A stretch of DNA of 64,000 nt from Candidatus Fermentibacterota bacterium (GCA_963718745.1 OY970370.1:1479904-1543903); one strand, 5' to 3'. Counted from the first letter of the stretch, positions 26,693 through 43,412 are shown. Notes: generated by a model from the sequence alone, not told the origin. A program made the numbers and translations.

Positions 26693-26719
26693 GTTAGGAT
26701 CAGTAGTTAAAACCGATCC
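26693..26719 (-). repeat. AT-rich 27-bp palindromic repeat, copy 2 (inverted; CTACTGATCC variant)
   Basis: reverse complement of copy 1 with 1 mismatch; the pair flanks ~185 bp between ccdA stop and acr3 start. Confidence 0.7.
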
Positions 26720-26725
26720 TGACAG

Positions 26726-27836: not shown

Positions 27837-27853
27837 CGGTGTGATCTCCAGCT

Positions 27854-28108: not shown

Positions 28109-28127
28109 CTTCCTGCCTCCGGTCCGG

Positions 28128-29423
28128 TCAGCCGGCAAAGGAGCCGAACACGAACCCGGTTAGAGTTGCGAGAACGATTACGAGCAGCACGAATACCGCG
28201 GTCTTCCTGGTCCCCATGATGCTCTTCAGGACCAGCATGCTGGGCAGTGAGAGCGCCGGGCCGGCCAGGAGCAGCGCAAGGGCCGGTCCGCTGCCCATGC
28301 CGGAGCCTATGAGCCCCTGGAGTATGGGGACCTCCGTCAGGGTAGCGAAGTACATCAGCGCGCCGGAGAAGGATGCGAAGAGATTGGCGAGGATGGAGTT
28401 CCCTCCGACCGCTCCGGCGATCCAGCCCGAGGGGATCATCGCCTCGTGTCCGGGCCTGCCCAGGAGGAAGCCCGCGACCAGGACACCGCCCAGGAGGAGA
28501 GGGATGATCTGTCGCGCGAAGCCGACCGTGGCGTCGAACCATTCCCTGAGCTGGGGTCCGCCCCGGGCGGAGATGGCGCCGACTGCGACGATACCGGCCG
28601 AAAAGGCATAGACCGGGTGCCCTGGCCAGATCACCGCAAGCGTCCCGACAGGGATGCTTCCGAGCAGCACCTTCCTCCAGCCCACCTTGAAATCGAGCAC
28701 CAGCATGAGCGCCAGGAGGATGGCGAAGGCCGATGTGATCTGCCACTTGATGCCTGCGATGAACGCCCACAGGGGAGCAGCTCCCTCGGGGCTGCCCCAG
28801 TTGGCGAAGACCAGGATCCCGACCATCGAGGCGAAGTACAGGACGGTTCTCCACAGAGGGCGCTGAGGCTCGGCTGGTCCCGTCGCAATGGCCGTCCTCG
28901 CGATCTCGGACTTCGACTTCCTGAAGAAGAGGCTCATGAGCAGGCCGATCACTATGCTGAAGACAACCGCCCCGACGGCCCTGGCGATTCCTATCTCGAG
29001 CCCGAGCACCCTGGCCGTCATCACGATGGCCAGGATGTTGATGGCGGGGCCGCTGTACAGGAAGGCCGTGGCGGGGCCGAGTCCGGCACCCATCGTATAG
29101 ATGCCCGCGAAGATGGGCAGTACGGTGCAGGAGCAGACCGCCAGGATCGTACCGGACACCGAGGCGACTCCATAGGCCTTCATCCTGTTTGCCCCCGGAC
29201 CGAGGTACTTGAGGACCGAGTCCTTGTTGAGGAAGACTCCGATCGCTCCTGCGATGAATAGGGCCGGCACGAGGCAGAGCAGAACGTGGAGTCTCGCGTA
29301 CTCGTTGAGCATGTAGAAGGCCTCGAGCACCGCGCCCTCGAATCTGGCGGAACCGGCGGGTATGAACCATGCCGCGAGGAGAACTGCGGCAAGGAGCAGC
29401 AGGGTCCGGGTCGTCGAGGTCAT
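28128..29423 (-). CDS. permease of DUF318/ArsP family (vicinal-Cys CSC motif)
   Basis: multi-TM; AVCSCTVLP resembles ArsP TPFcSCS motif; ATG overlaps arsR stop (ATGA). Confidence 0.65.
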   Translation of the reverse strand: MTSTTRTLLLLAAVLLAAWFIPAGSARFEGAVLEAFYMLNEYARLHVLLCLVPALFIAGAIGVFLNKDSVLKYLGPGANRMKAYGVASVSGTILAVCSCTVLPIFAGIYTMGAGLGPATAFLYSGPAINILAIVMTARVLGLEIGIARAVGAVVFSIVIGLLMSLFFRKSKSEIARTAIATGPAEPQRPLWRTVLYFASMVGILVFANWGSPEGAAPLWAFIAGIKWQITSAFAILLALMLVLDFKVGWRKVLLGSIPVGTLAVIWPGHPVYAFSAGIVAVGAISARGGPQLREWFDATVGFARQIIPLLLGGVLVAGFLLGRPGHEAMIPSGWIAGAVGGNSILANLFASFSGALMYFATLTEVPILQGLIGSGMGSGPALALLLAGPALSLPSMLVLKSIMGTRKTAVFVLLVIVLATLTGFVFGSFAG

Positions 29424-29752
29424 ACCTTCGAATTCTCTCTGAGACAGAGGGCGCTGGTGCACTCCTCACCGTTCATGACCCGCTCGATGCACTCGAAGAA
29501 ATCGGTTATGCATGGTGCTGCAAGGGAGTAGAAGACCCTGTTCCCCTCCTTGCGATCCCTTACAAGCCCGGCGTTCCGGAGCACCACGAGGTGCCTCGAG
29601 ACAGTGGAGATGTCCTGCCCGACAGCGGCTGAAAGATCTCCGACACAAAGCTCACGGTCCGTCAGGAGATCCACCATGTGGAGCCTGGCCGGATTCGCCA
29701 TCGCAGAAAGAACAGATGCCCTCCTGCGGAAGAGTTCGTTCTGTTCGGTCAT
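29420..29752 (-). CDS. arsR: ArsR/SmtB family metalloregulator
   Basis: HTH ...ELCVGDLSAAVGQDISTVSRHLVVLRNAGLV...; extra C-terminal Cys cluster CITDFFEC...EEC. Confidence 0.8.
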   Translation of the reverse strand: MTEQNELFRRRASVLSAMANPARLHMVDLLTDRELCVGDLSAAVGQDISTVSRHLVVLRNAGLVRDRKEGNRVFYSLAAPCITDFFECIERVMNGEECTSALCLRENSKV

Positions 29753-29760
29753 ATGGTCAG

Positions 29761-29808
29761 CCTCCTTGCTTATTTTGTAAAATAGACAAACGTATGGTCT
29801 TGGTCAAG
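29761..29808 (-). promoter_or_regulatory. arsR operon promoter/operator: -35 TTGACC, 18-nt spacer, -10 TATTTT overlapped by palindrome TTTGT-N7-ACAAA; RBS GGAGG
   Basis: read on minus strand: cTTGACCaagaccatacgTTTGTcTATTTTACAAAataagcaaGGAGGctgaccatATG. Confidence 0.45.
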
Positions 29809-29913
29809 CATCGGTTGACTTTCGACTTGTTCTCCTGGGTGTTTCGAGGAAACCACGAGGCACGGAGGATGATCCGTCTGTTCAACAATGCATTTACCGC
29901 ATGCAGGCTGGCT

Positions 29914-30345
29914 TCAGGGCAGCCCCACGCCCGCGCCCAGGCTGAATAGCCAGTCGTCGGACACGTCTCCAGATAAACGCCTGTACGCACCGCCGAAGAC
30001 GGATATCAGCCGCACGGACACCATGCCTCTGGCTCCGAGGTAGGAGGCGTCGGACCCCTCCCAGAGATAGAGACCTGAGGCGCTTATCCCGGCGGTCGCC
30101 AGCGGTGCGATCATCATTATCGACCCCTTGACCCCTGCGTTGAGCCCGATCCCGTCCCGGCCCGCTGAAGCCGACGCGAAAGGCCCTGCCTCGGTGACGA
30201 ATCCCGAGAAGTCGAAGAAGTTGACTCCCAGCTCGCCGCCCAGCCGGAGCGGCCAGGAGTACTGGATCTGCGCGGTCGGATAGGCGCCCTGTGCAAGCGG
30301 AGCGACAACCAGCAGGATGACTGCCAGAAGACACCTGCGGCTCAT
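29914..30345 (-). CDS. small outer-membrane/secreted hypothetical protein
   Basis: signal peptide MSRRCLLAVILLVVAPLAQGA; Gly/Ser-rich beta-strand pattern. Confidence 0.4.
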   Translation of the reverse strand: MSRRCLLAVILLVVAPLAQGAYPTAQIQYSWPLRLGGELGVNFFDFSGFVTEAGPFASASAGRDGIGLNAGVKGSIMMIAPLATAGISASGLYLWEGSDASYLGARGMVSVRLISVFGGAYRRLSGDVSDDWLFSLGAGVGLP

Positions 30346-30457
30346 GCCTGTTCTCCTTCCGGCCCCCGAAGCCCCCGAACGCATCGATCGCAACCCGGCT
30401 CTGCTCAAGCTATCGGAGGCGAAGCTCGAGGCGATCGCCGGGAGGGAGGACCCGGCT

Positions 30458-32263
30458 CTACTCTACTACCGCGAACCTGCCGGTCGCCGAGCTTATGCCG
30501 GACATCACCCTGCATACATAGACCCCCGGAGCCAGGTCGCTGACCGTGAACTGCGGACTGCCCGCTTCGAGGATCATCTCCATGGAGTCGTACACCCGCC
30601 TGCCGGAGATGTCGAATATGCAGAGCCGGACCTGGGCCTGCGCCTCCAGGCAGAGCCTGATGACCGCGACGCCGCATGCGGGATTCGGGCTTACAGGGAG
30701 GAGGGTCACACCGCTGCCTCCCGGTTCGCCTGGCGCCATACCCTGCTGGTTCCAGGTCACCCACACCTCGTCCAGATAGGGCTCCGCTCCGGGGGCGGAT
30801 ATGTCGAGGAGAGCTCGATACTGGAACAGGCTGTCCCCTGGCGCAAGAATCTGCGAGAGGCGGAGCGGAGCTTCGAAGGGTTCCGACCATTCGCCCATCT
30901 GCAGGATGTCGTCCGATGCCCTCACCTGGAACACCAGCGAAGAGCCCGATGGGATCTCGGCGATGCAGTCGAGGACATCCCATTCCGGGGCCGCTCCGGT
31001 GTCCAGCACGCTGGACTCCAGGTAACCGGAGTTCTGGCGCCTGTCCCACCACGCAATCTCCGCCGCTCCCATTGCGGCGAAAACGGGATCTATCTCGCCG
31101 TCGCCATCCATGTCCGCTGCACAGACGGACATCGCACCGTCGAGAACAACGATCGAGTGACGTCTCCAGGACCCGTCGCTGTTCTCCCACCACACGACCT
31201 CGTCGGCAACGGCGGCGGCCCCGACCAAGTCCATGTCGCCGTCGCTGTCGAAGTCACCGGGGACTATCGAGACAGCTCCGTCGAAGTCCGTGTCCAATTC
31301 GTGTCCGGTCCAGCTTCCCGACCGCCCGTCCCACCAGCCGACCACGCCATCGATCGCGGCTGCGCCCAGGATGTCCATGCTCCCATCGCCGTCGATGTCG
31401 GCAGAGCTGGCGAAGTAGGCGCCATCGAAACCGGTTGCGATGTCCTCCATCGTCCAGGCGGTCCCTGTTCCATCGGTATTGTTCCACAAAGCGACGGCAT
31501 CCAGGTAGTAGGCCGTTCCGATGACGTCCAGGTCGCCGTCCGAATCCATGTCGGATGCACTCACGGACCATGCACCATCGAAGGATTCGCCTATGGTGTG
31601 CCTGGTCCACTCGATGGCGGAACCGTCAATGTTCTCCCACCATGCGATCTCGTCGGAATAGGCGGCCGCTCCGAGGATATCAAGGTCGCCATCGCCGTCG
31701 ACATCGCCCGTGCATACGGACCTCGCGCCGTCGAAGCCGCCGTCGATGACAAGGGCGGACCAGCTCTGTCCGAGTCCGTCCCCGTTCATCCACAGGGTGA
31801 TGTCGAAAGCCTCGAACTGTGTCTTCGAGGCGCCCAGCACGTCGATGTCCCCGTCACCCTCGATGTCGGCGGCCCAGACTGAGCTCGCCCCCGTGAACAG
31901 GGAATCGATGGAGTGCCTGTTCCACTCCGTGGCGGCCTCGTCGATCCTCTCCCACCAGGAGACCTCGCCGGTCTCCACCGAGGTGCCGACAAGGTCGATA
32001 TCGCCATCACCGTCGATGTCCGCCGGGAAGATGGAAGTCGCTCCGGCAAAGGTGTCGTCGACTACTATTGTGCTGGCCTGAAGACTGATGCCTATGAACC
32101 CGGGCACTTCCGCATAATCGATGCCGGAACTGAGGTAGAAGGTGTTTCTGAACTGCATGACCGGTCCGGAGATCCCTGGGCCGCCAGACCAGTCCGCCTG
32201 CACAGCAACATCCCCACTCGGCGCAGATGCAATAACCATCAGTACAACGAGAATCCGGTACAT
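30458..32263 (-). CDS. FG-GAP/VCBS beta-propeller protein with T9SS C-terminal sorting domain
   Basis: repeats D.DGDGD.D..G; signal peptide; CTD VRLCIFDISGRRVYD...GVYVCRV. Confidence 0.75.
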   Translation of the reverse strand: MYRILVVLMVIASAPSGDVAVQADWSGGPGISGPVMQFRNTFYLSSGIDYAEVPGFIGISLQASTIVVDDTFAGATSIFPADIDGDGDIDLVGTSVETGEVSWWERIDEAATEWNRHSIDSLFTGASSVWAADIEGDGDIDVLGASKTQFEAFDITLWMNGDGLGQSWSALVIDGGFDGARSVCTGDVDGDGDLDILGAAAYSDEIAWWENIDGSAIEWTRHTIGESFDGAWSVSASDMDSDGDLDVIGTAYYLDAVALWNNTDGTGTAWTMEDIATGFDGAYFASSADIDGDGSMDILGAAAIDGVVGWWDGRSGSWTGHELDTDFDGAVSIVPGDFDSDGDMDLVGAAAVADEVVWWENSDGSWRRHSIVVLDGAMSVCAADMDGDGEIDPVFAAMGAAEIAWWDRRQNSGYLESSVLDTGAAPEWDVLDCIAEIPSGSSLVFQVRASDDILQMGEWSEPFEAPLRLSQILAPGDSLFQYRALLDISAPGAEPYLDEVWVTWNQQGMAPGEPGGSGVTLLPVSPNPACGVAVIRLCLEAQAQVRLCIFDISGRRVYDSMEMILEAGSPQFTVSDLAPGVYVCRVMSGISSATGRFAVVE

Positions 32264-32826
32264 TCCGCACCTCCATCGATGTGATTCTGCCCTGAAACAG
32301 TATCTGAGTCAATGGCATCGATTTCGGACCGCAGACCATCCTGTTCCTGGAGCGTCGACCAGGCACGACCCTGAGATGTGGTGCAGGAGGGGTGGCAAAC
32401 CCGGGCATCTGACCGGCTGACACCGGATCCTCGTCATTTGTCTTCCGCCGATGCTCCCGGGGGGACCTCGGAAACAGCTCCAGGTCGGTGACATTCTCCA
32501 GGGTGACCGGATCAGCTGCATCTGGTGCAGGCTGTCAGGTAGTCCTGAGCGCCCGGGATTTGGTGATCCACGGCCACCCCTCACAGTCAGTGTGTTCCTG
32601 CGCCAATCGAGCGGAGCTACTTCACGAGGTCTTCCACGAAAGAATAAGTATTATCTCTAGAAGAGGCGATGGTTTCAGGAACTTCGAGAACTACAGACTG
32701 AGAGTGCGAGCACTGTGCTGCTAAACTGGACCAGTGCCCCTGTTAATGGTGTAGATCCTGCAGATCTACCTGATTGAGTGGTACACCGGCCTTTGGTCCA
32801 GTCGAACCAGCTCAGAGTCATCCTTC

Positions 32827-33111
32827 ATGCTGCGTATCCCCAGACCTGACATCAGGATAGCACAGCAGAAGACCCGCTGCTACCGCAACCCGGTCATCTT
32901 CGCGATGGAGCTCCAGGCCGAGATGAGCACGGACCATCTGACAAGGCAGCAGCTCGCGGACAGGCACGGGATCTCCCTCGACCGGGTGATCCAGTGGCTA
33001 GCTCTGCTCAAGCTTCCCCAGGCACAGCTCGAGGAGATCAAGGTGCTGGGGGATCACTGGGAGCATCGGGTCGTGACGGAGCGGGAGCTGCGGAGAAGAA
33101 GATCCAACTGA
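32827..33111 (+). CDS. small ParB-type HTH protein, cassette 1
   Basis: LTRQQLADRHGISLDRVIQWLALLKLPQAQLEEI matches ParB/Spo0J HTH (LT.EELA.R.G.S...V.N.LRLL.LP); paralogs at 34825 and 41345; true start uncertain (conserved core begins MELQAEM). Confidence 0.5.
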   Translation: MLRIPRPDIRIAQQKTRCYRNPVIFAMELQAEMSTDHLTRQQLADRHGISLDRVIQWLALLKLPQAQLEEIKVLGDHWEHRVVTERELRRRRSN

Positions 33112-33284
33112 CTCCGTGATGGAAGCCAGTCAACTCATTGATCTAGGACGGTATCTCTCCCAGTCGAAGAAACCAGTGCGGGTACTGTCTTCCCCTCTTC
33201 CTAGCTCCGGATCGTGTTTCGGATCAGAGGTTGCCTCGTCCGAGGCGGTGGGCTATCTCTTTGCATCATGACTGGAGGGTGTGA

Positions 33285-34562
33285 ATGAAGCCGTTGCTCG
33301 CACTCGCGCTCATCTTCTCCCTCTCCCATGCGGAAATCGAAGTGGCGGAGCTGTTCCGGGCCGAGACGCTGGAGGAGCTCGAAGCCGCCCTTGTCGATGG
33401 CTACCCGATGCCGTGGCTGGCTGAAGTCCTCGCCGACTCCACAATCCCCGAGGATGACCGCTACTGGCTGGACTGCAGGATGAGGGCAGTCATCGCCCAG
33501 GACATGCACCTGTTCTTCGACAGAAATGGTGATCCAGTTCACGTTGAGGCTGAATGGATCGCACCCGGCGAAGACTACTGGCGTGAGAACTTCATGGTAA
33601 ATGCAGATGGAGCCGAATCCCTGTACGACCGATCAGATCAGCCGACCAATGTAGTTTCTGAACCCGGTGTTCTGGTCGATCGCTTCGGAGAGGAGATCGG
33701 CGAGCTTGCGATGATACACCGGGGGGTCAGGTTGAGCAGGGATGCCAGCATCGGTGTTACCCTATCCGGACGACACAACGAACCCGGCTGCCCGGTAACA
33801 ATGCCGCGCCTGTGTTTTGCCTGCCTTCTCTTCCCCGATGGTTCCTTCAGGGAAACGCAAATCGGTTACGCTGGGTACTCCAATTTCGCGATCAGCAACG
33901 ATGGTAGCCGGATCGTCGTTGAGACTGAAGTCCCTCGAGATTCGGATCTCGGAGAGGCGTACACCGGGTTGGTCTTCCTGCTCGATCGGGAAGGAAGCAT
34001 CGTAGCCCGTTTCCCGATGGCGGACGGGATCATGGGTGGAGCGCCTGCTGTCTCGGCTACCGGCAGATACGTGGCGTGCAGACAGAACTCGATACCCGAA
34101 AGAGGGGTCTTCCTCCTCGATGGGGAAACTGGTCAACTCCTCTATCGATTCAGAGAAGACGTGGTCGGGCACGACTTAACGTTTTCTCCCAACGAACAGT
34201 ATCTGTGCATCGGAGGTCTCTATAGGCCAGTAGTCTTCGACTGTCTTGATCGTGAGGAGATATGGTCTGTTACCCCCTCCGATCTTGATGTTGACGAGCC
34301 TGTTCTTCGCCCTGGCTATTGTGCAGATGATGGGCAAACGTTTGTGTTCAGTTCACTACAAACTCACCCGATGCGTTTCGGTACGATGATCTTCAGAGGA
34401 GACAGTCGCCCTATTGAATGGGATTCTACTAGAGGGGTCATCCAGGTATCCCCTAACGGCGCTTGCACCTTCGCTCAGTGCTACGATGCGGTAGAGCCCA
34501 ACTCCTGGAACGACTTCCTGTGCGTTCCAGTGATCGTGAACCAGCTCGAAGGTGGTGAGTAG
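33285..34562 (+). CDS. secreted PD40/TolB-like beta-propeller protein, cassette 1 (conserved N-domain, variable C-region)
   Basis: RBS GGAGGGTG; signal peptide MKPLLALALIFSLSHA; first ~90 aa near-identical to 35742 and 41860 paralogs. Confidence 0.7.
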   Translation: MKPLLALALIFSLSHAEIEVAELFRAETLEELEAALVDGYPMPWLAEVLADSTIPEDDRYWLDCRMRAVIAQDMHLFFDRNGDPVHVEAEWIAPGEDYWRENFMVNADGAESLYDRSDQPTNVVSEPGVLVDRFGEEIGELAMIHRGVRLSRDASIGVTLSGRHNEPGCPVTMPRLCFACLLFPDGSFRETQIGYAGYSNFAISNDGSRIVVETEVPRDSDLGEAYTGLVFLLDREGSIVARFPMADGIMGGAPAVSATGRYVACRQNSIPERGVFLLDGETGQLLYRFREDVVGHDLTFSPNEQYLCIGGLYRPVVFDCLDREEIWSVTPSDLDVDEPVLRPGYCADDGQTFVFSSLQTHPMRFGTMIFRGDSRPIEWDSTRGVIQVSPNGACTFAQCYDAVEPNSWNDFLCVPVIVNQLEGGE

Positions 34563-34565
34563 AGG

Positions 34566-34745
34566 ATGAAGACGACCATCATCGCTCTCGTTCTATGCGG
34601 AACTGCCTTCTGCATCCCCTGCCACTGGGTGCGACTCCCGATGCCCAGGACTCGACGCACACGATCATGCCCGTCTACGGCGATTAACACGCTCCATTCG
34701 GAATCGACCTGACGGACAGACCCATCAGGTGTCGACGATCCGCTT
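34566..34745 (+). pseudogene. degraded 5' remnant of a paralog of the 37061 large surface-protein gene
   Basis: MKTTIIALVLCGTAFC... aligns to 43079 remnant but with indels/frameshifts; THT..H.YGDY..PFGIDLTD similarity to N-terminus of 37061 protein lost to frameshift. Confidence 0.4.
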
Positions 34746-34824
34746 GTCAGCTTGGACCAGTGCCCCACTTAATGGCGGAGAACCAGAACCTAAATCCCTG
34801 TATGGCAACTATTTGTAAGGAATA

Positions 34825-35160
34825 ATGTGGTACACCGGCCTTTGCTCCAGTCGAACCAGCTCAGGGCCATCCTTCATACTGCGTATCCCGAGACCTGACA
34901 TCAGGATAGCCCCGCCCAGGACCCGTCTCTACCGCAACCCGGTCATCCTCTCGATGGAGCTCCAGGCCGAGATGAGTACGGACCAACTCACGAGGCAGCA
35001 GCTGGCCGATAGACACGGGATCTCCCTCGATCGTGTGATCCAGTGGCTGGCCCTGCTGAAGCTGCCCGAGACGAAGATCAAGGAGATCGTGGCGCTGGGA
35101 GACTACTGGGAGCGGCGTCTTGTGACGGAGAGGGAGCTGCGGAGAAAGAGAACCAACTGA
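34825..35160 (+). CDS. small ParB-type HTH protein, cassette 2
   Basis: paralog of 32827 and 41345 (MELQAEMSTDQLTRQQLADRHGISLDRVIQWLALLKLPETKIKEI). Confidence 0.5.
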   Translation: MWYTGLCSSRTSSGPSFILRIPRPDIRIAPPRTRLYRNPVILSMELQAEMSTDQLTRQQLADRHGISLDRVIQWLALLKLPETKIKEIVALGDYWERRLVTERELRRKRTN

Positions 35161-35572
35161 CTCCGTGACGGAAGCCAGTCATCTCTTTGATGTAGGACGG
35201 CATCTCTCCCAGTCGAAGAAACAAGACGTTTCCTTCGGATTGTTGCAGCACGAGCGCAAGTCTGTTTTATACCTGTCTTCGTATACGAAATTCACCATCT
35301 CAGCACAGTTGGATGAAATGCGGAATTGGGAGTGCGTATCCTTCAGTGGCATGCCGCTTCTCTAGCCTTCCTGTGTGGTGTTGTAAATGTAGACAAGGTA
35401 AAATTTTATCTGGACTCTGCGACCGCGCTGGGTCAAAGACTCGAAGCAGTCTATCTTGCATGACGGCCCTTGACGCGGATACATGAGTGAATGAGCATAC
35501 CCCTGTCTTGTCTGACATGCTCGAAGGAGAGTGCGTGAGACGGCACGAAAACAGCATCATCCATGAAAGCGC

Positions 35573-35642
35573 CTACCTACCTACCTACCTACCTACCTAC
35601 CTACCTACCTACCTACCTACCTACCTACCTACCTACCTACCT
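35573..35642. repeat. tetranucleotide simple-sequence repeat (CTAC/TACC)x~17
   Basis: 70 nt of perfect CTAC units ~100 bp upstream of the 35742 start; single TACC in equivalent position of cassettes 1 and 3. Confidence 0.9.
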
Positions 35643-35741
35643 GTCTTCCCCTCTTACTAGTTCCGGATCGTATCCAGCATCTGTGTTTGCCTCGAAGGAG
35701 GCCATGGGGTATCTCTGTACAGACGGACCTGGAGGGTATGA

Positions 35742-37061
35742 ATGAAAGCATTTCTCGCCCTGGCAGTTCTCTTCTCCCTCTCCCATGCAGACATCGAAGT
35801 GACGGAGCTGTTCCGGGCGGAGACGCCCGCCGAGCTCGAAGCTGCCCTTGTCGACGGCTACCCGATGCCATGGCTGGCTGAGGTCCTCGCAGACTCCACC
35901 ATCCCGGAGGAGGACCGCTACTGGCTGGACTGCCGGATGAGAGCGGCGATTGCCCGCGATCTCAACCTCTTCTTCGATCGGGACGGGAACCGTGTCGAGG
36001 TCGAGTGTGACTATATGCATCCGGGTGAGAGCTACTGGCGCGAGCACTTCATCGTGAATCCTCTCGGCGAGTCGTTCCGATACGACACTCAAGATCGCCC
36101 TGCTGACGTTCCATACCTGGAGATGGAGGCGCAGCCGGGGTACATCCTGAACTTGTACGGTGAACGAGTGGGAGACATCGCTATCACCCGCGACAGGGTG
36201 TGGCTGTCGCGGGACGCCTCGGTGGGGATCTTCAGGACTGGTAATACCGATGGAATCAGCTACAATCGTGCCTGCTTCCTGTACCCCGACGGATCGTTCC
36301 GGGAGCAGCCGATTGATCCGGTGTTCGTCCAGTACGCTCTGAGCCAGGACGGGAATGTAGCTGTATTCTGCTCAAGATCGCAACATGTGCCTGAAGAGAG
36401 AAACCAGGAGGAATGGGAGTGGATGGTGTATGCCTTCGACCATGAAGGCGATCTCATTTTCGAGAAACTCGCACCATATGATCCGCTATCTGGTTCGGCT
36501 ACGCCAGCGATCTCGCCGGACAGCCGGTATATAGCTATCCCCTTCGGGACAGGCTCTGTCTGGTTGCTCGATGCTCGTACCGGAGATGTGATCCATATGT
36601 GGGGTGGGACTCCTGAAAACATGGTTAGCGGGAGCAACCTCTACTTCACACAGGACAGCAGATACCTTTGTGCCGGTAGCGTGATGGTCTTCGACTGCGA
36701 GACAGGAGAACGGATTCTCAAGGTCGGCACAAGCGCGCCGTACACACAGACTTCCGAAGGCTTCCTAGAGAGAGGGCGCAACACTTGTATGGCCAGCAAC
36801 GGAGCTAGGCTGGTTAGCAACATCTTCTGGACGAACTTCCGCCCAATCGAATTTGCCCCTTACATTTACACTTCGACTGTCGAGCTGCGGGACCAGAATG
36901 CCAACCTGTTCTATTCGGAATCGTGCGACTGGCTGCCGTTCATGTCGCCGAACGGAGAATTCCTCTTAGGGGAGAAGTACAATTCCCTCTTCTTCGGAGG
37001 TTCTGGATCAGACGCTTCGTCCACTCCGCTTGCGATCATGCGCCTCCTGGAGGTGGAGTAA
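35742..37061 (+). CDS. secreted PD40-like beta-propeller protein, cassette 2
   Basis: RBS GGAGGGTATGA; signal peptide MKAFLALAVLFSLSHA; 5' ~270 nt near-identical to 41860 copy; stop overlaps start of 37061 gene (TAATG). Confidence 0.7.
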   Translation: MKAFLALAVLFSLSHADIEVTELFRAETPAELEAALVDGYPMPWLAEVLADSTIPEEDRYWLDCRMRAAIARDLNLFFDRDGNRVEVECDYMHPGESYWREHFIVNPLGESFRYDTQDRPADVPYLEMEAQPGYILNLYGERVGDIAITRDRVWLSRDASVGIFRTGNTDGISYNRACFLYPDGSFREQPIDPVFVQYALSQDGNVAVFCSRSQHVPEERNQEEWEWMVYAFDHEGDLIFEKLAPYDPLSGSATPAISPDSRYIAIPFGTGSVWLLDARTGDVIHMWGGTPENMVSGSNLYFTQDSRYLCAGSVMVFDCETGERILKVGTSAPYTQTSEGFLERGRNTCMASNGARLVSNIFWTNFRPIEFAPYIYTSTVELRDQNANLFYSESCDWLPFMSPNGEFLLGEKYNSLFFGGSGSDASSTPLAIMRLLEVE

Positions 37062-40000
37062 TGAAACTGTTCTATGCACTCACCACAGCGGCGCTGATCT
37101 TCTCTGCTTCAGCCTTCGCCACTGATCCCGTGATTTGGCCGATGAGCCCTCAGGGAGGGACTCATACACTCTTCCACAGCTTTGGAGACTACCATACGCC
37201 ATGGATGAATGCATGTGCCGACTCAACGAATTTCCACTTCGGCATCGACCTCACCGATCCGACGCCCTCGGCTGTCGATGATGCTGCTGAAGCAGTCTAT
37301 AGCGTGCGTACCGGATATGTGCGAGATGTGTTCTATCCCGAAGGAGTAACCCCTGATGCCCCGATGGCGCACGACAACTATGGGATCGTGATCTGCGACG
37401 AGTACCAGCAGCAGACCGGTTTCGGCTGGTGCCTCCAGCACATTGAGGACTACCTGTACACCGGAGGGGGCTTGGAAAACAACCCCTGGTCGCCAGACAG
37501 TATGTACACTAACAACTTCTTCGTTGAAACGGCACGTCTTGGCGACATCGACAACGATGCCTTCAGCCAGGGTGGCGCCACCTGGACTGACGATCACCTG
37601 CACTTCATGAGAAGCGCCTACACATACAATCCCGCACATCCAGGATACCTAAACCCTCTCTTCTATCTCGACCCTGCGCCGGTCGAGGGCAGCAGTCCCT
37701 TCTTCGACTGGTCATGGGATAGCGGGACTGGAATTCCCTACGGGTTCTTCGTGATCCCTCAGTACTCGGCTCTTAACGACTGGGAAACCGAGTGGGCGAC
37801 ACCTGCTGCGTGCAAGAGCGAGATTGACTCATTCGAGAGCATAATCAGCGGAGCTGTCGATCTGGTTCTTTTGATGCATGTGGAAGGTGAAGGTGTAACG
37901 GGAAGCACTCCTCCCTTCAGCTGCATGCCGCAGCGACTGGAGTGGTGGGTGGAGAGATGGGACGCATCCACGAACGCCTGGGTTGAGGTCGAGGACATCA
38001 ACGGAATCCCGTATCACAGATATCCTTTCGACTTCGGGGATATCGAGCTGGGAGGCTCCTCGGACTGGGAGCGGTACAAGCAGATCTATTTCAGGTTCGA
38101 TGCTTTCGACTTTTTCAGTAGTGCCTCTGCAGGGAGCATGTGCTGCCTCACGAACTGCAGTGATAATGATTCTTGGGACGGTATAGAGAACATCGAGGAG
38201 AACTGGTGGCAGACCAACGTCGATAAGGAGCAGGTCGGACCGACGATTGTGGCGGAGGAGATGCTGTTTCCTGATGGGCAGTACAGGATTGCAATCAGGC
38301 CCTGGGTATTCAATGGAACGACACCAGTCGCACTGACTCCGGCCTATGCGCTTGTCGATCTTCACAACAGCAGCCCGGTCGCGCATGCGGCCGAGATTCT
38401 GAGCCCTGCGAAGGGCACGATTTGGTCAGCGCACTGGGAGGCTGTGGAGGTCGTCGACGGTCTTGAGGTCGAGTTCGTCGTCCAGGAGGATGAGCCCGTA
38501 GAGGCAGGGCAGACGCTGGCAGCGACGATCGTGTTTTCGGAGCCGATGAACACCGCGTCGGGAAGCTATTCGATAACGGCTGGCAAGGCTCCGGATTATG
38601 ACGATCTGGAGGTCACGACTACGGGTTGGAGTTGCACTAACAACCCTGCACCGTACTACGATACCTGGTCAGGAACGATCGAGGTCCCCGAGACAGGGAT
38701 ATCGGGGAGGATCATCCTGCGTATCGAAGCAGAGGATACTGATGGCAACTGCTTGAAGGATCCCGCGGATGCCTTCCCGTCGGATGACGAGTATTCCGAT
38801 CTCTACCATGGCTTCGGGATAGCGTTTGGTGCGGAGCCTGGGTGGAGTGCAACGCTCCACGGTGGAGTCTATGGTTCTCCGTGTCTTGGGGATCTCGACG
38901 GCGATGGGGACCTGGACGTGGTTATCCAGAGCAAGGATGGGTGGATCAACTGCCTGGACGACACCGGGGCGCAGTTCAGCGGTTGGCCTCAGAATGGCGG
39001 CTGGGTGCCTTCTTGGACGAAGACATACAGCTCGGTTTCACTATCCGATCTGGATCAGGACGGATCACTCGAAATCCTTGCGACCAATCCCTATGGATGC
39101 AGGGCATACGAACTGGACGGGACGTATACCAGCTATCTCAATTCGAACTACTCTCACTTCAGCAAGGCATCACCTGCTGTGGGCGACGTAGACGGTGACG
39201 ATTTGCTGGAAGTCGTGCTCGGCCGGGTGGATGACGGGCAGGGCTCGGCCATGCCGTCAGTAATCTGCCTGGAGAACGACCTTACATTGAAGTGGACGAA
39301 GCTCTACTCGGGGCTGTTCGGAGAGATGCCGATACTGGCGACACCTGCTGTCGGTGACATCTCGAGCAGCCACACGGGTAACGAGATAGCAATTGCGACA
39401 GGGCAGGATTTCATCGAGGGTTATCCTTACCTGGAGACTGACACGGGGTATCCCAACTGGGTCCGACTTCTCGACGGTTCGGGGAACACGCTCTGGACGT
39501 CGGCGGACTACCTGTGCCAGTTCTGGGCGTCGCCGGTGGTGGGAGACATCGACGGGGACGAGATAAACGAGGTGGTAATAGGAAGCACCACCAACTGGGA
39601 CGACGGGAAGAAGGTGTTCGTGCTTAACGGGAACACCGGGGCGCTTGAACACACATGGACCGTTGGCAACTGGGTACTGCATCCGGCGGCACTCGCCGAT
39701 CTTGACGATGACGGCGTGCTTGATGTGATCGTGGCCTGCAACGACCACAAGGTGTACGCCTGGTCGGGCGACACTCATCAAGCCTTGTCAGGATATCCGG
39801 TGGATCTCGGATCACTAGTAGGAAGTCCTTCGGTGGCTGACATAGATGGCGACTTTGACCTTGAGGTTGTGGTAGGCACGTCGGCAGGAGAGCTTTGGGC
39901 GTTGAATCCAGATGGATCGACCTGCACAGGATTCCCGGTAGCTGATGGGACCTATTTCAGAGGGTCACCTGCGATGGGCGATCTGGATGGAGACGGGTGC

Positions 40001-41185
40001 CTGGAGGTTCTGATCGCCGACCAGACTGATGCAACCGCGTACTGCTACGACATGGGCTCGGGTTCGTTCCCGTGCGAGATGCCGTGGCGTCAGTTCCAGC
40101 ATGATTCGTGGCACAGCGGGTGCTTCGAGGCGGATAACACGGTACCTGAGGCTCCGACGGATCTGGACGCGATAGTGACGTACAACGAGTACGGCTACAC
40201 AGCAGACCTGACATGGGACCTGTCGGTGAATGATCCGTACTCGCCCGATCCGGAGGATCCTGCGGATGTTGTCAGTTACCAGATCTACAGGGCGTTTCCT
40301 CCGAGTACGTACACGATCCTCAGCCGCAGTCATGCGGGTGAGGGATACTACACGGACGAGTGCCCCGACCCGCAGGGCACGGTGGTCAGATATGTGGTTA
40401 CCGCCTCCGACGGGACGAACGAGTCGGAGTACAGCAACGAGGTGAGGTTCAGGACGGTGCCTGGGCTTAACCTCGCGGCCGGCTGCCATGTGACCGAGGA
40501 GCTGACCAGCGGAGTACGCACCAGTGTTGAGGTATCTGCTGGCTCGCACGGCATGGCGAGGATCAGTGATACCGGATCCATGTCGACGGCAGGTACTGCA
40601 ACCGGAGCGAAGCTCCTCACGGACGGAGAGACGGAAGACGTCTACATCCCCGGTGCCGGTGTGCGGGCTGTCGTGATAGACCTGGGCTGCAGCTGCCTCA
40701 TCGGGCAGGTTGATCTGATGGAGGCACGCGCTGAGGCGTCTGCCTCGATGGCCGATCCTTCGGTGATCGAGGTATCGGCCGACGGGACGGCCTGGGCGGC
40801 GCTGGGCGCGCAGAGGGCGACTGCCGGAACGGCGGGCAGATATGTCAGGATAAGCCCTGCGCCGATCACGTCCGAGGTCTTCGTCTGGGGTAACTGGACA
40901 GCGGAAGAGGATGAAGAGTCAGTGATCGGCATGGAGAGGATCGATGGCCGCTGGAACCTCGAGATGCCCGTGCTTGACGATGCTTCCTCGGGAGAGATCG
41001 GAACCTTGAGTTTGTATGACGTAACGGGTCGCGTTCTGAGGAGCTGGAGCGCCCGCCCGGGCGAGGAAGTGGACTGGGACGGCCGGACGGCATCAGGCAT
41101 GCAGGTCACTCCCGGCTGCTACTTCGTTCGCTATGAGCAGGGCGGTGAAGCCGTCACGAGGAGGCTCCTGGTAACTGCGGAGTAG
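37061..41185 (+). CDS. large surface protein: N-terminal M23-like domain (HFGID...HLH), FG-GAP repeats, FN3-like domain, T9SS C-terminal sorting domain
   Basis: 1375 aa from ATG 37061 (signal peptide MKLFYALTTAALIFSASAFA); >=8 D.DGDG FG-GAP repeats; CTD LSLYDVTGRVLRS...GCYFVRY. Confidence 0.8.
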   Translation: MKLFYALTTAALIFSASAFATDPVIWPMSPQGGTHTLFHSFGDYHTPWMNACADSTNFHFGIDLTDPTPSAVDDAAEAVYSVRTGYVRDVFYPEGVTPDAPMAHDNYGIVICDEYQQQTGFGWCLQHIEDYLYTGGGLENNPWSPDSMYTNNFFVETARLGDIDNDAFSQGGATWTDDHLHFMRSAYTYNPAHPGYLNPLFYLDPAPVEGSSPFFDWSWDSGTGIPYGFFVIPQYSALNDWETEWATPAACKSEIDSFESIISGAVDLVLLMHVEGEGVTGSTPPFSCMPQRLEWWVERWDASTNAWVEVEDINGIPYHRYPFDFGDIELGGSSDWERYKQIYFRFDAFDFFSSASAGSMCCLTNCSDNDSWDGIENIEENWWQTNVDKEQVGPTIVAEEMLFPDGQYRIAIRPWVFNGTTPVALTPAYALVDLHNSSPVAHAAEILSPAKGTIWSAHWEAVEVVDGLEVEFVVQEDEPVEAGQTLAATIVFSEPMNTASGSYSITAGKAPDYDDLEVTTTGWSCTNNPAPYYDTWSGTIEVPETGISGRIILRIEAEDTDGNCLKDPADAFPSDDEYSDLYHGFGIAFGAEPGWSATLHGGVYGSPCLGDLDGDGDLDVVIQSKDGWINCLDDTGAQFSGWPQNGGWVPSWTKTYSSVSLSDLDQDGSLEILATNPYGCRAYELDGTYTSYLNSNYSHFSKASPAVGDVDGDDLLEVVLGRVDDGQGSAMPSVICLENDLTLKWTKLYSGLFGEMPILATPAVGDISSSHTGNEIAIATGQDFIEGYPYLETDTGYPNWVRLLDGSGNTLWTSADYLCQFWASPVVGDIDGDEINEVVIGSTTNWDDGKKVFVLNGNTGALEHTWTVGNWVLHPAALADLDDDGVLDVIVACNDHKVYAWSGDTHQALSGYPVDLGSLVGSPSVADIDGDFDLEVVVGTSAGELWALNPDGSTCTGFPVADGTYFRGSPAMGDLDGDGCLEVLIADQTDATAYCYDMGSGSFPCEMPWRQFQHDSWHSGCFEADNTVPEAPTDLDAIVTYNEYGYTADLTWDLSVNDPYSPDPEDPADVVSYQIYRAFPPSTYTILSRSHAGEGYYTDECPDPQGTVVRYVVTASDGTNESEYSNEVRFRTVPGLNLAAGCHVTEELTSGVRTSVEVSAGSHGMARISDTGSMSTAGTATGAKLLTDGETEDVYIPGAGVRAVVIDLGCSCLIGQVDLMEARAEASASMADPSVIEVSADGTAWAALGAQRATAGTAGRYVRISPAPITSEVFVWGNWTAEEDEESVIGMERIDGRWNLEMPVLDDASSGEIGTLSLYDVTGRVLRSWSARPGEEVDWDGRTASGMQVTPGCYFVRYEQGGEAVTRRLLVTAE

Positions 41186-41217
41186 AACAGACAGAACGGG
41201 TGAAGACCCGCAATAAC

Positions 41218-41243
41218 AGCCGGGCGGCCTTCGGGCCGCCCGG
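41218..41243 (+). terminator. GC hairpin GCCGGGCGGCC-TTCG-GGCCGCCCGGC downstream of large gene (no U-tract)
   Basis: 11-bp stem with UUCG tetraloop 33 nt after stop. Confidence 0.35.
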
Positions 41244-41344
41244 CCTGCATCAGGGAAATCCCGGAGAGAAAGGCTCAGCACGAAAGCCGGCGTGTTCAGC
41301 CAAGGCAAGATCATTCTTACTGGCTGTCTGGCAACAACATATAT

Positions 41345-41716
41345 ATGATTTGCTGGTACACCGGCCTTTGGTCCAGTCGAACCAGCTCAGGGTCATCCTT
41401 CATGCTGCGTATCCCGAGACCTGACATCAGGATAGCACAGCAGAAGACCCGCTGTTACCGCAATCCGGTCATCTTCGCGATGGAGCTCGAGGCCGAGATG
41501 AGCACGGACCAACTGACCAGGCGGCAGCTCGCGGATCGACACGGGATCTCCCTCGACCGGCTGATCCAGTGGCTGGCTCTGCTGAAGCTGCCGACGGAAC
41601 AGCTCGAGGAGATCGCCGCTCTGGGGGATTACTCGGGAAAGCCGGTGGTTACGGAGAGGGAGTTGAGGAGAAGAAGATCCAACCGTCTCCGTGATGGAAG
41701 CCAGTCAACTCATTGA
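41345..41716 (+). CDS. small ParB-type HTH protein, cassette 3
   Basis: paralog of 32827 and 34825. Confidence 0.5.
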   Translation: MICWYTGLWSSRTSSGSSFMLRIPRPDIRIAQQKTRCYRNPVIFAMELEAEMSTDQLTRRQLADRHGISLDRLIQWLALLKLPTEQLEEIAALGDYSGKPVVTERELRRRRSNRLRDGSQSTH

Positions 41717-41859
41717 TCTAGGACGGGATCTTTCCCAGTCGAAGAAACCAGTGCGGGTCCTGTCTTGCACTCTTCCTAGCTCCGGATCGTGTCCAGCATC
41801 GTGATTGCCTCGACGGAGGCCATGGGGTATCTCTGTACAGACGGACCTGGAGGGTATGA

Positions 41860-43077
41860 ATGAAAGCATTTCTCGCCCTGGCAGTTCTCTTCTCCCTCTC
41901 CCATGCAGACATCGAAGTGACGGAGCTGTTCCGAGCGGAGACGCCCGCCGAGCTCGAAGCTGCACTCGTCGACGGCTACCCGATGCCGTGGCTGGCTGAG
42001 GTCCTCGCAGACCCCTCGATCCCCGAGGAGGACCGCTACTGGCTGGACTGCAGGATGAGGGCGGTCATCGCCCAGGACCTGCACCTGTTCTTCGACGAGG
42101 AAGGTAGTCCTGTACGGATTGATGCCGACTGGATCTGGCCTGGGGAGGACTACTGGCGTGAATGTTTCAGCATCAACAGGGACGGGGTTGATGACCCATT
42201 CGATGTGTCAAATCAACCCACCGGCAATTGGGGAGGTCAGGGCTACGTATCTGACAGATACGGAAACAACCTCGGACCTCTCGCTATCTGTCCAATTCCG
42301 AGGTACAACTCATGCATGTCCCGCGACGGATCTGTATCGATCACGCTTAGCGGTATACAGGACAATAACTTCGGGCCCGGACTCATGAACCTGTGCTTTC
42401 TAGGGGAAGACGGCAGTTTCAGCGAATTCCAATTGCATGGATGGTTCACCAAGTATGCGATGAGTCAGAGTGGTAATCTGGTCGTTGCATCATGTTACGA
42501 CAGACGGCGTGAAGTGGCCAGAGACCAACGAATACACCGTATCCTTGTATTCGATGGAGAAGGAAGTCTCCTTTACGAACTGAACCAGCCTGACTCACCG
42601 CACTTTGAACAGGGTTCGCCACTGATCTCGCCAGATGACCGATACATAGCGATTCCTTTCCGTGGATCAAGACCGATGGTTCTTCTCGACGCCGCTTCTG
42701 GAGAGGAGCTTCACGTATGGCCCGACATGCTGGGAGCGACCAAGCATTTCTCAGCCAATTCGAGGTATCTGAGCTTCTGCAACACATCATCGGGGATGGT
42801 CGTGGATTGCATATCGGGTGAAGTCGTATGGAGAGGCTATGACGGGGTAAGAGAGATCTTTTCTTCCAATGACGGTCGACTCGTCTGCTGGATGGGAGAA
42901 GGTTCCTGGACCAACCTCGTGGATCTGGAAGAGGGTATCTCCATCGACAGCATCTGCCAGGGAAGACCGACTCTGTCTCCGAATGCGTTCTTCCTAATCG
43001 CACAGAGAAGCGTGTCTGGCAGCCTGATCCCTGACGACCTCTCGTTCTTCGCCGCCCGCATCGAAGCAGGTGAGTAG
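41860..43077 (+). CDS. secreted PD40-like beta-propeller protein, cassette 3
   Basis: signal peptide MKAFLALAVLFSLSHA; conserved N-domain then divergent repeats (ISPDDRYIAIPF..., FSANSRYLSF...). Confidence 0.7.
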   Translation: MKAFLALAVLFSLSHADIEVTELFRAETPAELEAALVDGYPMPWLAEVLADPSIPEEDRYWLDCRMRAVIAQDLHLFFDEEGSPVRIDADWIWPGEDYWRECFSINRDGVDDPFDVSNQPTGNWGGQGYVSDRYGNNLGPLAICPIPRYNSCMSRDGSVSITLSGIQDNNFGPGLMNLCFLGEDGSFSEFQLHGWFTKYAMSQSGNLVVASCYDRRREVARDQRIHRILVFDGEGSLLYELNQPDSPHFEQGSPLISPDDRYIAIPFRGSRPMVLLDAASGEELHVWPDMLGATKHFSANSRYLSFCNTSSGMVVDCISGEVVWRGYDGVREIFSSNDGRLVCWMGEGSWTNLVDLEEGISIDSICQGRPTLSPNAFFLIAQRSVSGSLIPDDLSFFAARIEAGE

Positions 43078-43078
43078 G

Positions 43079-43335
43079 ATGAAGACGACCATCATCGCTC
43101 TCGCTCTATGCGGAACTGCCTTCTGCTTTCCCTGGCCGCTGGGTGCGTCTCCCGATGCCCAGGACTCTACGCACACGATCATGCACGTCTACGGCGACTA
43201 TCACACTCCATTCGGAATCGACCTGACGGACAGACCCATCGGGTGTCGACGATCCGCGTGTCAGCTTGGACCAGTGCCCCAGTTAATGGCAAAGAACCTA
43301 AATCCCTGTATGGCAACAAGTTGTAAGGAATTTTG
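43079..43335 (+). pseudogene. 5' remnant (signal peptide + ~60 aa) of a paralog of the 37061 large-protein gene, truncated at the tRNA junction
   Basis: MKTTIIALALCGTAFCFPWPLGASPDAQDSTHTIMHVYGDYHTPFGIDLTD... similar to N-terminus of 37061 protein; ORF runs into tRNA sequence. Confidence 0.4.
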
Positions 43336-43412
43336 TGGTACGCCCGCCAGGAGTTGAACCCGGAACCTTCTGGTCCGTAGCCAGACGCTCTATCCAGTTG
43401 AGCTACGGGCGC
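43336..43412 (-). tRNA. tRNA-Arg (anticodon ACG)
   Basis: 77 nt GCGCCCGTAGCTCAACTGGATAGAGCGTCTGGCTACGGACCAGAAGGTTCCGGGTTCAACTCCTGGCGGGCGTACCA folds into cloverleaf; anticodon loop CUACGGA; encoded CCA. Confidence 0.8.

Follow-up and report, generated by a model that had tools for sequence, protein, structure and literature searches.

How do three related gene cassettes come to lie one behind the other against the 3' end of a tRNA gene, with no integrase beside them? The question is raised by a 64-kb stretch of the genome of a Candidatus Fermentibacterota bacterium (GCA_963718745.1 OY970370.1:1479904-1543903), hereafter the window, in which an initial annotation had described integrative elements repeatedly inserted beside tRNA-Arg(ACG). 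We observed that the array is indeed there: three cassettes in tandem start at positions 32779, 34828 and 41354 (lengths of 2049, 6526 and 1982 bp) and the array ends at the tRNA-Arg(ACG) gene, located on the minus strand (43336-43412). The units follow one plan, in which a short site is followed by a small open reading frame (ORF) encoding a helix-turn-helix (HTH) protein, then by a gene for a secreted protein of 405-439 amino acids (aa) with a signal peptide, and finally by a giant gene or a stub of it. This architecture is real, non-random and restricted to the phylum, and the region from 32.8 to 43.3 kb forms the tRNA-proximal end of a hypervariable island of accessory genes, itself composed of cassettes. 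On balance, we favour the explanation that non-autonomous cassettes have accreted in tandem at the 3' end of tRNA-Arg through a recombinase supplied in trans.

All three units open with TGGTACACCGGCC, and these first 13 nt of the site equal the tRNA end, which reads TGGTACGCCCGCC in its plus-strand image, at 11 of 13 positions, as had been claimed; only 4 other positions among 127,974 in the window reach this score. The 33-mer TGGTACACCGGCCTTTGGTCCAGTCGAACCAGC is present in three plus-strand copies, at 32779, 34828 (with one mismatch) and 41354, where chance would give none, and the consensus of these copies is TGGTACACCGGCCTTTG[G/C]TCCAGTCGAACCAGC. Two boundaries given earlier had to be corrected: unit 1 begins at 32779 and not at 32777, and the homology between units, described as a common start of about 80 bp, extends over ~400 bp. 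Repeats of this kind could also come from a repeat collapsed or duplicated during assembly, and the presence of repeats is all that speaks for such an artefact. Against it, the propeller proteins encoded by the units are 41-44% identical, the unit lengths differ as given above, the source is a 2.52-Mb assembly of closed size and similar arrays are found in independent assemblies. The divergence of the units is too great for an assembly duplication, an explanation that we find hardly credible.

To describe the conservation of the site, we used 25 module instances, 14 of them distinct, from the window and from contigs (L numbers) of more than ten assemblies. The site is bipartite, with the consensus TGGTAC[A/G]CCG-N10-CAG[T/A]CGAACC (about 30 bp), and stands at the tRNA-distal start of the cassettes. 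Among the 14 distinct modules, the mean pairwise identity is 0.99 at positions 0-9 (TGGTACACCG, box 1), 0.84 in the 10-nt spacer and 1.00 at positions 20-29 (CAGTCGAACC, box 2), with 0.09-0.34 over the 60 nt upstream of the site. The site and the 5' end of the HTH reading frame overlap (W-Y-T-G...S-R-T), and the identity at third codon positions is 0.92 within it versus 0.53-0.57 in the remaining HTH ORF. Judged by these identities, the site is a constrained DNA element with a sharp boundary at TGGTAC. Both boxes are kept in the variants of L024 (TGGTACGCCGGCC) and of L033, L035 and L036 (TGGTACACCAAGCCTGACGCCAGACGAACC). In L037, which has 49% G+C and 59% protein identity, three modules lie 4.5-4.8 kb apart and each opens with TGGTACGCC; box 2 is CAGTCGAACC at +20 in two of them and CCTCGAACC in the third. 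The match to the tRNA end reaches 12/13 in L024 and 9/9 in the distant L037, and the pattern W-x8-R-T is retained in remote members of the HTH family. An Rfam search at E<=5 over 32-44 kb found the tRNA only, thus the site is neither a pseudo-tRNA nor a known RNA; ARAGORN found no tRNA in any of the related loci. When genome contigs were scanned with ACCGGCCNNNNNTCCAGTCGAACC, 14 stretches were obtained, 13 of which were chance matches in unrelated phyla, and only L018 was relevant.

The other ends of the cassettes also have features in common. The right-end motif GGACCAGTGCCCCNNTTAATGG occurs exactly three times in the window, at 32728, 34754 and 43268, and brackets the array on both sides as first described. 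The right end of unit 3 adjoins position 43336, the last base of tRNA-Arg(ACG). A long conserved right end had been attributed to units 2 and 3; it is in fact common to units 1 (34563-34827) and 3 (43076-43335), over ~270 bp with 92-95% identity, and the end of unit 2 has only CTGT.TGGCAAC in common with it. This right end does adjoin the tRNA, as claimed, but for the most part it derives from a giant-gene paralogue, of which it is a 5' fragment. The element GGACCAGTGCCCC..TTAATGG is located 51-74 nt from the putative crossover, downstream of quite different genes, many right ends contain GAGAACC/AGAACC boxes, and the terminal sequence ...GTA[AG]G[AG]ATAA[CT]G is common. Several right ends provide a Shine-Dalgarno-like AAGGA and an ATG or TTG right against TGGTAC. 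Read from the sequence, such features would be in keeping with the arms of a site of attP type.

Two other explanations of the right ends were rejected. The motif is not supported as a terminal repeat of the ISL3 transposase remnant described below, since it also follows unrelated genes without any transposase fragment, and the spacing in TGGCAAC...TTGT is, by inspection, unsuitable for a sigma-54 or Bacteroidetes-type promoter. Separately, in L027 (~150-700) a right-end-like motif is separated from an HTH module by four apparently structured tandem repeats of ~75-110 nt (ATTCCGCGGAGCGGAATTGATGGGTAGCACAACAGCGGTTTCCCAGAGGGAAACTGCGAGTGTGCGTGC and diverged copies).

We then aligned the four junctions of the window. 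Left of TGGTAC, the unit 1/unit 2 and unit 3/tRNA junctions are homologous, and right of it stands either a site or the tRNA; the homology runs through TGGTAC and is followed by divergence, and the two positions mismatched with the tRNA always stay with their own right-hand partner. A second, independent case is a right end ...TGTGTCAGGGT, which is found before site b in L004 (exact end ...TTGTGTCAGGGT) and before the tRNA in L046 and L054 (...GGTGTCAGGGT or ...TTGTGTCAGGT), so that the partners of a right end are interchangeable. This pattern is the one expected if a circular cassette, carrying right end, TGGTAC and site, recombined with the tRNA end. An integron-like explanation, in which the junctions would be attC-type sites of a cluster lacking its integrase (CALIN), folded as single strands and recognized by an IntI-type integrase, would also account for a cassette array with one recombination site each and no adjacent integrase. 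However, the folding of the junctions compared with shuffled sequences is inconsistent (z from +1.96 to -2.9; +1.96 and +1.20 at the unit 1/2 junction, -0.86 and -2.10 at the unit 2/3 junction) and there is no conserved hairpin. Moreover, the cassettes are 2-6.5 kb long, multigenic and equipped with their own promoters and terminators, and the site is bipartite and linear instead of an imperfect palindrome; we consider this explanation highly improbable.

The small gene that overlaps the site encodes proteins of 94-123 aa, and the three copies of the window are 76-86% identical over aligned positions. Outside the site, the identity at codon positions 1, 2 and 3 of the HTH ORF is 0.79, 0.86 and 0.57, therefore the gene is under purifying selection. 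The initial annotation had called these proteins ParB-type. With the Pfam family HTH_ParB the window proteins score only 17-20 bits, below the cut-off of 22.6, whereas distant members of the family reach 24-46 bits; a profile search collected 420 clusters at 50% identity, all of them small proteins. An AlphaFold2 model (mean predicted local distance difference test, pLDDT, of 71.5) matches the DNA-binding domains of Noc, Spo0J, ParB and KorB. The best-superposing structures (Spo0J, Noc and ParB) give a root-mean-square deviation of 0.8-1.3 Å over 51-53 residues with 23-35% identity, and the alignment spans residues 118-170 of Spo0J. Thus the predicted fold and the profile scores at the level of the family support the assignment to the ParB DNA-binding type, which the scores of the window proteins themselves would not have given. 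The HTH region alone aligns: the N-terminal ParB/Srx (CTP-binding) domain is not present in these proteins and, in comparison with ParB, Noc and KorB, the C-terminal dimerisation domain is missing. A parS-like 16-bp palindrome, as in ParB systems, is not present here.

Searches with this family gave little else. An exact-sequence look-up of propeller 1 and of the HTH protein P0001 found no record, a PDB sequence search with the HTH profile gave nothing useful, no relative of the HTH family was found in the viral contigs searched, and a tblastn search of plasmids with a distant family member returned generic ParB matches only. Looking up the clusters of distant HTH relatives gave neither names nor genomic context. 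In another distant member, P0258 (205 aa), the ORF continues for ~90 residues upstream of the HTH (...IVVNRENIEIEYTIPI...); we take this part to resemble the C-terminal tail of a large serine recombinase, a likeness that no database match supports. We also noted a second copy of a box, CCCAGTCGAAGAAACCAG, downstream of the HTH stop codon at 33160-33178 and 35205-35223, therefore in window-type modules the HTH gene lies between direct repeats of CCAGTCGAA..ACCAG. A hairpin overlaps the HTH stop at 33104-33133 and 35154-35181.

The same cassettes were sought at tRNA-Arg in relatives, and the layout of site and HTH gene was found in more than ten assemblies, with cargo and cassette number that vary; two other lineages contain arrays with three or four cassettes, and overlapping contigs of the GCA_002363235 type carry at least four successive cassettes. 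The flanks of the locus are conserved in Fermentibacter and related genomes, on the left SecDF, a histidine kinase with its response regulator and DUF6144, on the right tRNA-Arg, a lipoprotein of 305-310 aa, two genes of ~190-250 aa without family match and TldD/PmbA. Between these flanks the island of the window measures ~22 kb, and a JGI contig has ~5 kb with one HTH module. The cargo across genomes is of any kind and in either orientation, with a conserved right end in many cassettes, and includes type IX secretion system (T9SS) proteins, an ABC transporter, CRISPR-Cas and AbiE. In GCA_002363235, a C25 peptidase and a BNR T9SS protein lie between two modules. The Logan contigs have two modules separated by an ABC transporter with MarR, which is on the opposite strand; an ArsR-ArsP-thioredoxin block precedes the first module. 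AbiE and an IS3 element stand beside an HTH module, and another module is located ~120 bp downstream of enolase (L025 6551-6672; L026 1234-10808). Behind this module, and on the strand of its HTH gene, comes a type I CRISPR-Cas system that includes Cas3, GSU0053 and a Cas4-Cas1 fusion. The enolase-side module could mark a second insertion locus, or else one that has been rearranged. Defence systems such as type I CRISPR-Cas and AbiE are typical cargo of islands, and we count their presence beside modules in favour of accretion.

All public contigs with the right-flank lipoprotein gene (L040-L048 and L054-L056) break within the tRNA-Arg gene, exactly at its CCA or at most 29 nt past it, except that L055 and L056 end 14-43 nt past the lipoprotein gene, before the tRNA. 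These breaks fit strain heterogeneity or repeats that begin at the tRNA end; the tRNA gene is also a common break point of assemblies.

The absence of an integrase, an excisionase and a relaxase, stated in the initial annotation, was confirmed for the window: none of its ~60 ORFs, and none of ~40 ORFs of related loci, matched the tyrosine or serine recombinase, excisionase or relaxase families of Pfam and NCBIfam. The sole matches of transposase type were IS3 transposases (L001, L029 and L033) and the ISL3 remnant. A protein of 477 aa that recurs beside modules was rejected as a novel recombinase because it has a signal peptide and a T9SS tail, and the gene of 310 aa beside the tRNA was rejected as an integrase since it encodes a lipoprotein without family match and is part of the conserved flank. 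No autonomous cognate element was found among the loci retrieved or in the viral collection.

A further alternative is that the cassettes are fixed relics, once autonomous integrative elements specific for tRNA-Arg that decayed, lost their integrase and are immobile today. The truncated gene in units 1 and 3, which is frameshifted in unit 1, the insertion sequence remnants and the absence of any integrase nearby would agree with such a decay. But a fragment of an integrase is kept in 0 of more than 30 modules in more than ten assemblies. In addition, the site is near-invariant and the HTH gene is selected across genera that differ by 40% in protein sequence and by 15% in G+C, which points to a current function, and close relatives differ in content at the same locus. 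We regard fixed relics as decidedly unlikely.

Another alternative comes from the comparison of the units with each other. In a sliding comparison, units 1 and 3 are 98% identical over their first 100 bp and 92-94% identical in their tails, units 2 and 3 are 99% identical in the leader of the propeller gene, and the propeller bodies are essentially unalignable. From this mosaic pattern of identity it follows that the units exchanged segments by homologous recombination and that they are not, at least in part, three clean independent acquisitions. The whole array could also be a paralogous family kept by homologous recombination, with unequal crossing-over and gene conversion between the ~400-bp HTH modules, cargo swapped between strains by double crossovers in these modules, an HTH protein that is simply a transcription regulator acting on an operator of its own, and a likeness to the tRNA that is a relic or due to chance. 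The mosaic (5' part of the HTH gene close between units 1 and 3, propeller leader between units 2 and 3, tail between units 1 and 3) is what this alternative predicts, and the propellers follow it too, with 77-83% identity in their N-terminal 100 aa and 34-38% in the remainder. It is also in line with the existence elsewhere of the propeller and giant operon without a module, with the host-like G+C content at third codon positions (GC3) of the HTH genes, and with the failure to find a recombinase in the window and ~25 related loci; since the site is the start of an ORF, an operator at this place would also be constrained as DNA.

However, homologous recombination leaves unexplained that homology stops exactly at TGGTAC in every context, that the hexamer and 5 of the 7 next nt (9/9 in the distant genus) equal the 3' end of tRNA-Arg, and that one right end adjoins either a tRNA or a site. 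Furthermore, the cargo is unrelated and often on the opposite strand (the ABC transporter with MarR, the T9SS genes), with CRISPR-Cas on the same strand, so that a role of the HTH protein as a dedicated regulator is unlikely. We consider that homologous recombination as the sole origin of the array is rather unlikely.

Tandem accretion at the tRNA would proceed as follows. Cassettes would enter as circles that carry the right end, TGGTAC, and then the site with the HTH gene; these circles would recombine with the tRNA 3' end, with a crossover in or beside TGGTAC, and each new cassette would displace the older ones away from the tRNA. The gene for the recombinase would lie at another place in the genome or on a helper element. 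For the HTH protein, the most likely binding sites would be the GAACC / TGGNCCAGT boxes found at the ends of cassettes, where its candidate roles are those of an accessory or directionality factor and of a repressor, alone or combined. In the present array, the giant gene of units 1 and 3 has been reduced to a 5' stub and the three units have since exchanged segments by homologous recombination. We infer mobility from the tie of the cassettes to the tRNA 3' end and from their variable cargo; of the accretion first proposed, the cassette-like architecture tied to the tRNA 3' end stands, strengthened by the other genomes, with the qualification that the units are mosaic.

Several observations weigh against this explanation. 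Neither the 64-kb window nor ~25 related loci (~40 ORFs) yielded a tyrosine or serine recombinase, and we recovered neither an empty site nor a circular junction, nor a clean presence/absence pair flanked by long sequences. The perfect identity with the tRNA is limited to TGGTAC, the match, although far above chance, is shorter than typical att repeats, and box 2 fits the T-loop region of the tRNA only with a 5-nt shift. The boundary is also where the HTH reading frame begins, which alone would explain some of its sharpness, and the junction comparison with L046 and L054 is based on just 21-29 nt. The enolase-side module has no tRNA in view. Finally, units 1 and 3 have a decayed tail in common, so that at least part of the array arose by internal duplication or gene conversion.

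The coordinates of the features are collected in the table below.

Table. Features of the cassette array and of the adjoining variable region in the window
Feature	Position	Strand	Basis
Older, tRNA-distal part of the same variable region	20840..32263		Lies between the conserved left flank (SecDF-HK-RR-DUF6144) and the array
ISL3-family transposase C-terminal remnant (...ANRAELLHEVFHERISIISRRGDGFRNFENYRLRVRALCC*)	32590..32724	+	DDE_Tnp_ISL3 profile and frame translation
Right-end motif copy GGACCAGTGCCCCTGTTAATGG, 51 nt left of site 1; includes the palindrome ACTGGACCAGT	32728..32749	+	
Site 1: box 1 TGGTACACCG, 10-nt spacer, box 2 CAGTCGAACC; tRNA-distal boundary of unit 1	32779..32811	+	
HTH1, ParB-type HTH only, 94 aa from first ATG; frame open back through the site	32827..33111	+	
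Propeller 1: signal peptide, conserved N-terminal helical domain, 7-bladed beta-propeller	33285..34562	+	
Unit 1 tail: frameshifted 5' fragment of giant-gene paralogue	34566..34750	+	Translation and alignment to giant N-terminus
Unit 1 right end: GGACCAGTGCCCC..TTAATGG, GAGAACC/AGAACC boxes, CTGTATGGCAAC, then AAGGAATAATG immediately before site 2	34754..34827	+	
HTH2, ATG adjoins the site (MWYTGLCSSRT...)	34825..35160	+	
Site 2, one spacer mismatch	34828..34860	+	
Perfect microsatellite (CCTA)17.8, upstream of the promoter/leader of the propeller 2 and giant operon	35572..35642	+	
Propeller 2	35742..37061	+	
Giant secreted FG-GAP protein, 1375 aa from ATG, T9SS-like C-terminal domain	37061..41185	+	FG-GAP_3 E=5e-19
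Hairpin GCCGGGCGGCC-TTCG-GGCCGCCCGGC, G+C-rich, after the giant gene; likely terminator	41219..41244	+	Read from sequence
HTH3 (MICWYTGLWSSRT...); usual stop lost, C-terminus extended by 10 aa	41345..41716	+	
Site 3	41354..41386	+	
Propeller 3	41860..43077	+	
Unit 3 tail: giant-gene paralogue 5' fragment, 92-95% identical to unit 1 tail	43078..43255	+	
Unit 3 right end, immediately adjoining the tRNA 3' end	43268..43335	+	
tRNA-Arg(ACG), intact, 62.9 bits; 3' end GGCGGGCGTACCA, proposed target	43336..43412	-	ARAGORN and Rfam

The secreted proteins of the units had been described as PD40-like propellers with a signal peptide. The signal peptide was found, and the model (AlphaFold2 mean pLDDT of 86.5; Foldseek top matches to WD40/YVTN propellers) predicts a 7-bladed fold nearest to WD40/YVTN. 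Membership in PD40 is not established, the single match being below threshold and in propeller 2 only (17.2 bits vs 20.9). The propeller family comprises 118 clusters, and those named by organism are nearly all from Fermentibacteria; the three window propellers are 41-44% identical over the longer sequence and 45-49% over aligned positions. The giant protein of 1375 aa, present in unit 2 only, had been presented as an M23/FG-GAP/T9SS protein. FG-GAP was confirmed, M23 was not detected (the N-terminal 258 aa gave no Pfam match at all at E<=1), and the T9SS sorting domain is sub-threshold (TIGR04183 18.2 vs 23; FlgD_ig 18.7 vs 27); its C-terminus is 44% identical to a cargo protein with a T9SS tail from L024. 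A PDB sequence search with its first 420 aa gave no match.

In place of the giant gene, units 1 and 3 have a stub of ~180 bp, whose translation, frameshifted in unit 1, gives a signal peptide and THT..H..GDYHTP..FGIDLTD, the N-terminal part of a giant-protein paralogue; both units are therefore cassettes of the HTH-propeller-giant type that have decayed. Orthologous pairs of propeller and giant genes are found in L001, L049 and L053, and the operon also occurs at unrelated loci without any HTH module. In L049 (GCA_022703195, ~9990-10030), the orthologous operon has the (CCTA) tract of unit 2 at the corresponding upstream position, in ~10 copies. Since the operon exists elsewhere without the module, in L049 with the same (CCTA)n, the propeller and giant genes are ordinary cargo. 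No such tract was found in units 1 and 3; from its sequence, (CCTA)n looks like a phase-variable promoter spacer. The other reading offered for the array, that of a possible locus for the variation of secreted proteins, is compatible with accretion and not exclusive of it.

The composition of the array is atypical, with a G+C content of 0.54-0.60 over 32-43 kb compared to 0.59-0.68 in the flanks. The GC3 of the cargo is 0.63-0.68, whereas that of the HTH genes is ~0.8, like host genes. The cumulative GC skew has its minimum at ~32-37 kb and rises steadily rightward, and the giant gene contributes part of it. A promoter-like site near tRNA-Arg is located at 43461-43433 on the minus strand. By Pfam and NCBIfam, the older part of the variable region contains an SBBP T9SS protein, an RCC1 T9SS protein, ACR3, an ArsR-ArsP-thioredoxin cassette and an FG-GAP T9SS protein, no HTH module was found in it, and its contents differ from those of L001, L002, L004 and the P0027 contig. 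Within it, the ACR3 arsenite efflux gene and the ArsR-ArsP permease-thioredoxin block are on the minus strand (25282-29752), and a plus-strand ORF of 431 aa (26751-28046) is a spurious antisense ORF; in L004, the same block stands immediately left of an HTH module.

The first reading had overlooked the remnant of an ISL3 transposase at 32590-32724. It matches positions 214-240 of the 240 of the DDE_Tnp_ISL3 profile (E=5e-4, 20.4 bits vs a cut-off of 23) and consists of only the last ~45 codons, ending ...GFRNFENYRLRVRALCC*, so that a complete DDE transposase is not present; it ends 4 nt before the left-hand copy of the right-end motif. Elsewhere, in L001, L029 and L033, the IS3 transposases are close to HTH modules.

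The initial annotation recognised no described island type in this locus, which is too strong, since related systems have been reported. The closest is that of the islands at ssrA in Dehalococcoides, which are arranged in tandem, bounded by a repeat of the t(m)RNA 3' end and in many cases devoid of an integration module (McMurdie et al. 2011, PMC3146451). In both systems, several islands lie downstream of one small-RNA gene, each with a short repeat of its 3' end; one position constantly differs between gene and repeats, additional nt are conserved around the repeat, the repeat lies inside the first gene of a conserved module that includes a ParB-domain protein, the cargo is strain-specific and many islands are without an integration module, those of Dehalococcoides being proposed to be cis-mobilizable (PMC3146451). 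Unlike the present cassettes, 16 islands there carry the serine recombinases DsiB and DsiA beside the repeat, compared to 0 of more than 30 modules here; their target is the tmRNA with a 20-bp repeat, instead of tRNA-Arg with 6 perfect and 9-13 similar nt, and their ParB protein has a ParBc domain of nuclease/CTPase type where ours has the HTH domain only (PMC3146451). The phylum and the cargo are also different, the latter consisting here of T9SS proteins and defence systems.

The cassettes also resemble the cis-mobilizable elements (CIMEs) known from accretion of the ICESt1 type (reviewed in PMC5704250, citing Pavlovic 2004 and Bellanger 2011), which are bounded by att sites, have no integration or transfer genes and are stacked at the 3' end of a target gene. 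Here, the sites at 32779, 34828 and 41354 and the tRNA end delimit units without int, xis or mob genes, and the same logic would apply as for CIMEs, which are expected to be excised or mobilised by the integrase of a related element (PMC5704250). However, what identifies a CIME is the identity of its att sites with those of an integrative and conjugative or integrative and mobilizable element known from the same species (PMC5704250), whereas no cognate autonomous element is known here. In addition, every cassette here has a conserved and selected HTH gene, which is not a random product of decay. Tycheposon islands of Prochlorococcus likewise lie beside tRNA genes, where successive integrations push older elements inward, and contain scattered partial tRNAs, degenerate remnants and adaptive cargo; unlike our cassettes, tycheposons carry their own tyrosine or large serine recombinase beside the tRNA and are without the module of site and ParB HTH (10.1101/2020.12.28.424599).

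With respect to a classical tRNA island, the locus has the boundary at an intact tRNA end, the atypical composition and the variable content, and lacks the integrase. Tandem elements between short integration-site repeats are also formed by staphylococcal cassette chromosome (SCC) and pseudo-SCC islands at rlmH and by the Xer-dependent arrays of integrative mobile elements exploiting Xer (IMEX) at dif. Several of these elements have no recombinase and rely on CcrAB or on the host XerCD in trans; they differ in their target, the 3' end of a protein gene or dif, in their unrelated sites and in having no cassette-borne HTH. What differs here is that every cassette seen is without a recombinase, has a selected HTH-only ParB gene fused to the site, and shows a very short identity with the tRNA.

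Fermentibacterota are uncultivated bacteria, common in anaerobic digesters, and to our knowledge no mobile elements have been described in them. A bolder reading, which we hold as speculative and rather unlikely, is that the phylum possesses a cassette-capture platform anchored in the chromosome, integron-like but built from other parts, with the 3' end of tRNA-Arg as the insertion point. In such a platform, a 30-bp site fused to the start of the ParB-HTH gene would be marked or activated by the HTH protein, and a distant recombinase conserved in the phylum would insert, excise and shuffle the cassettes, a proposal just as tentative. That the cassettes of such a platform would be mainly those of T9SS surface proteins and defence systems is put forward with the same reserve.

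The locus appears to gather strain-specific surface proteins, as T9SS cargo, together with transporters and defence systems. The module of site and HTH gene provides an easy sequence tag for this variable gene pool in metagenomes and for the delimitation of cassettes, and it also offers, through co-occurrence, a route to the missing recombinase. If it is true that the recombinase is host-encoded and that the HTH protein is its cassette-borne accessory, these bacteria would have a new solution to the exchange of cassettes without an integrase; if not, the array would be a further example of the accretion of decayed islands at a tRNA gene.

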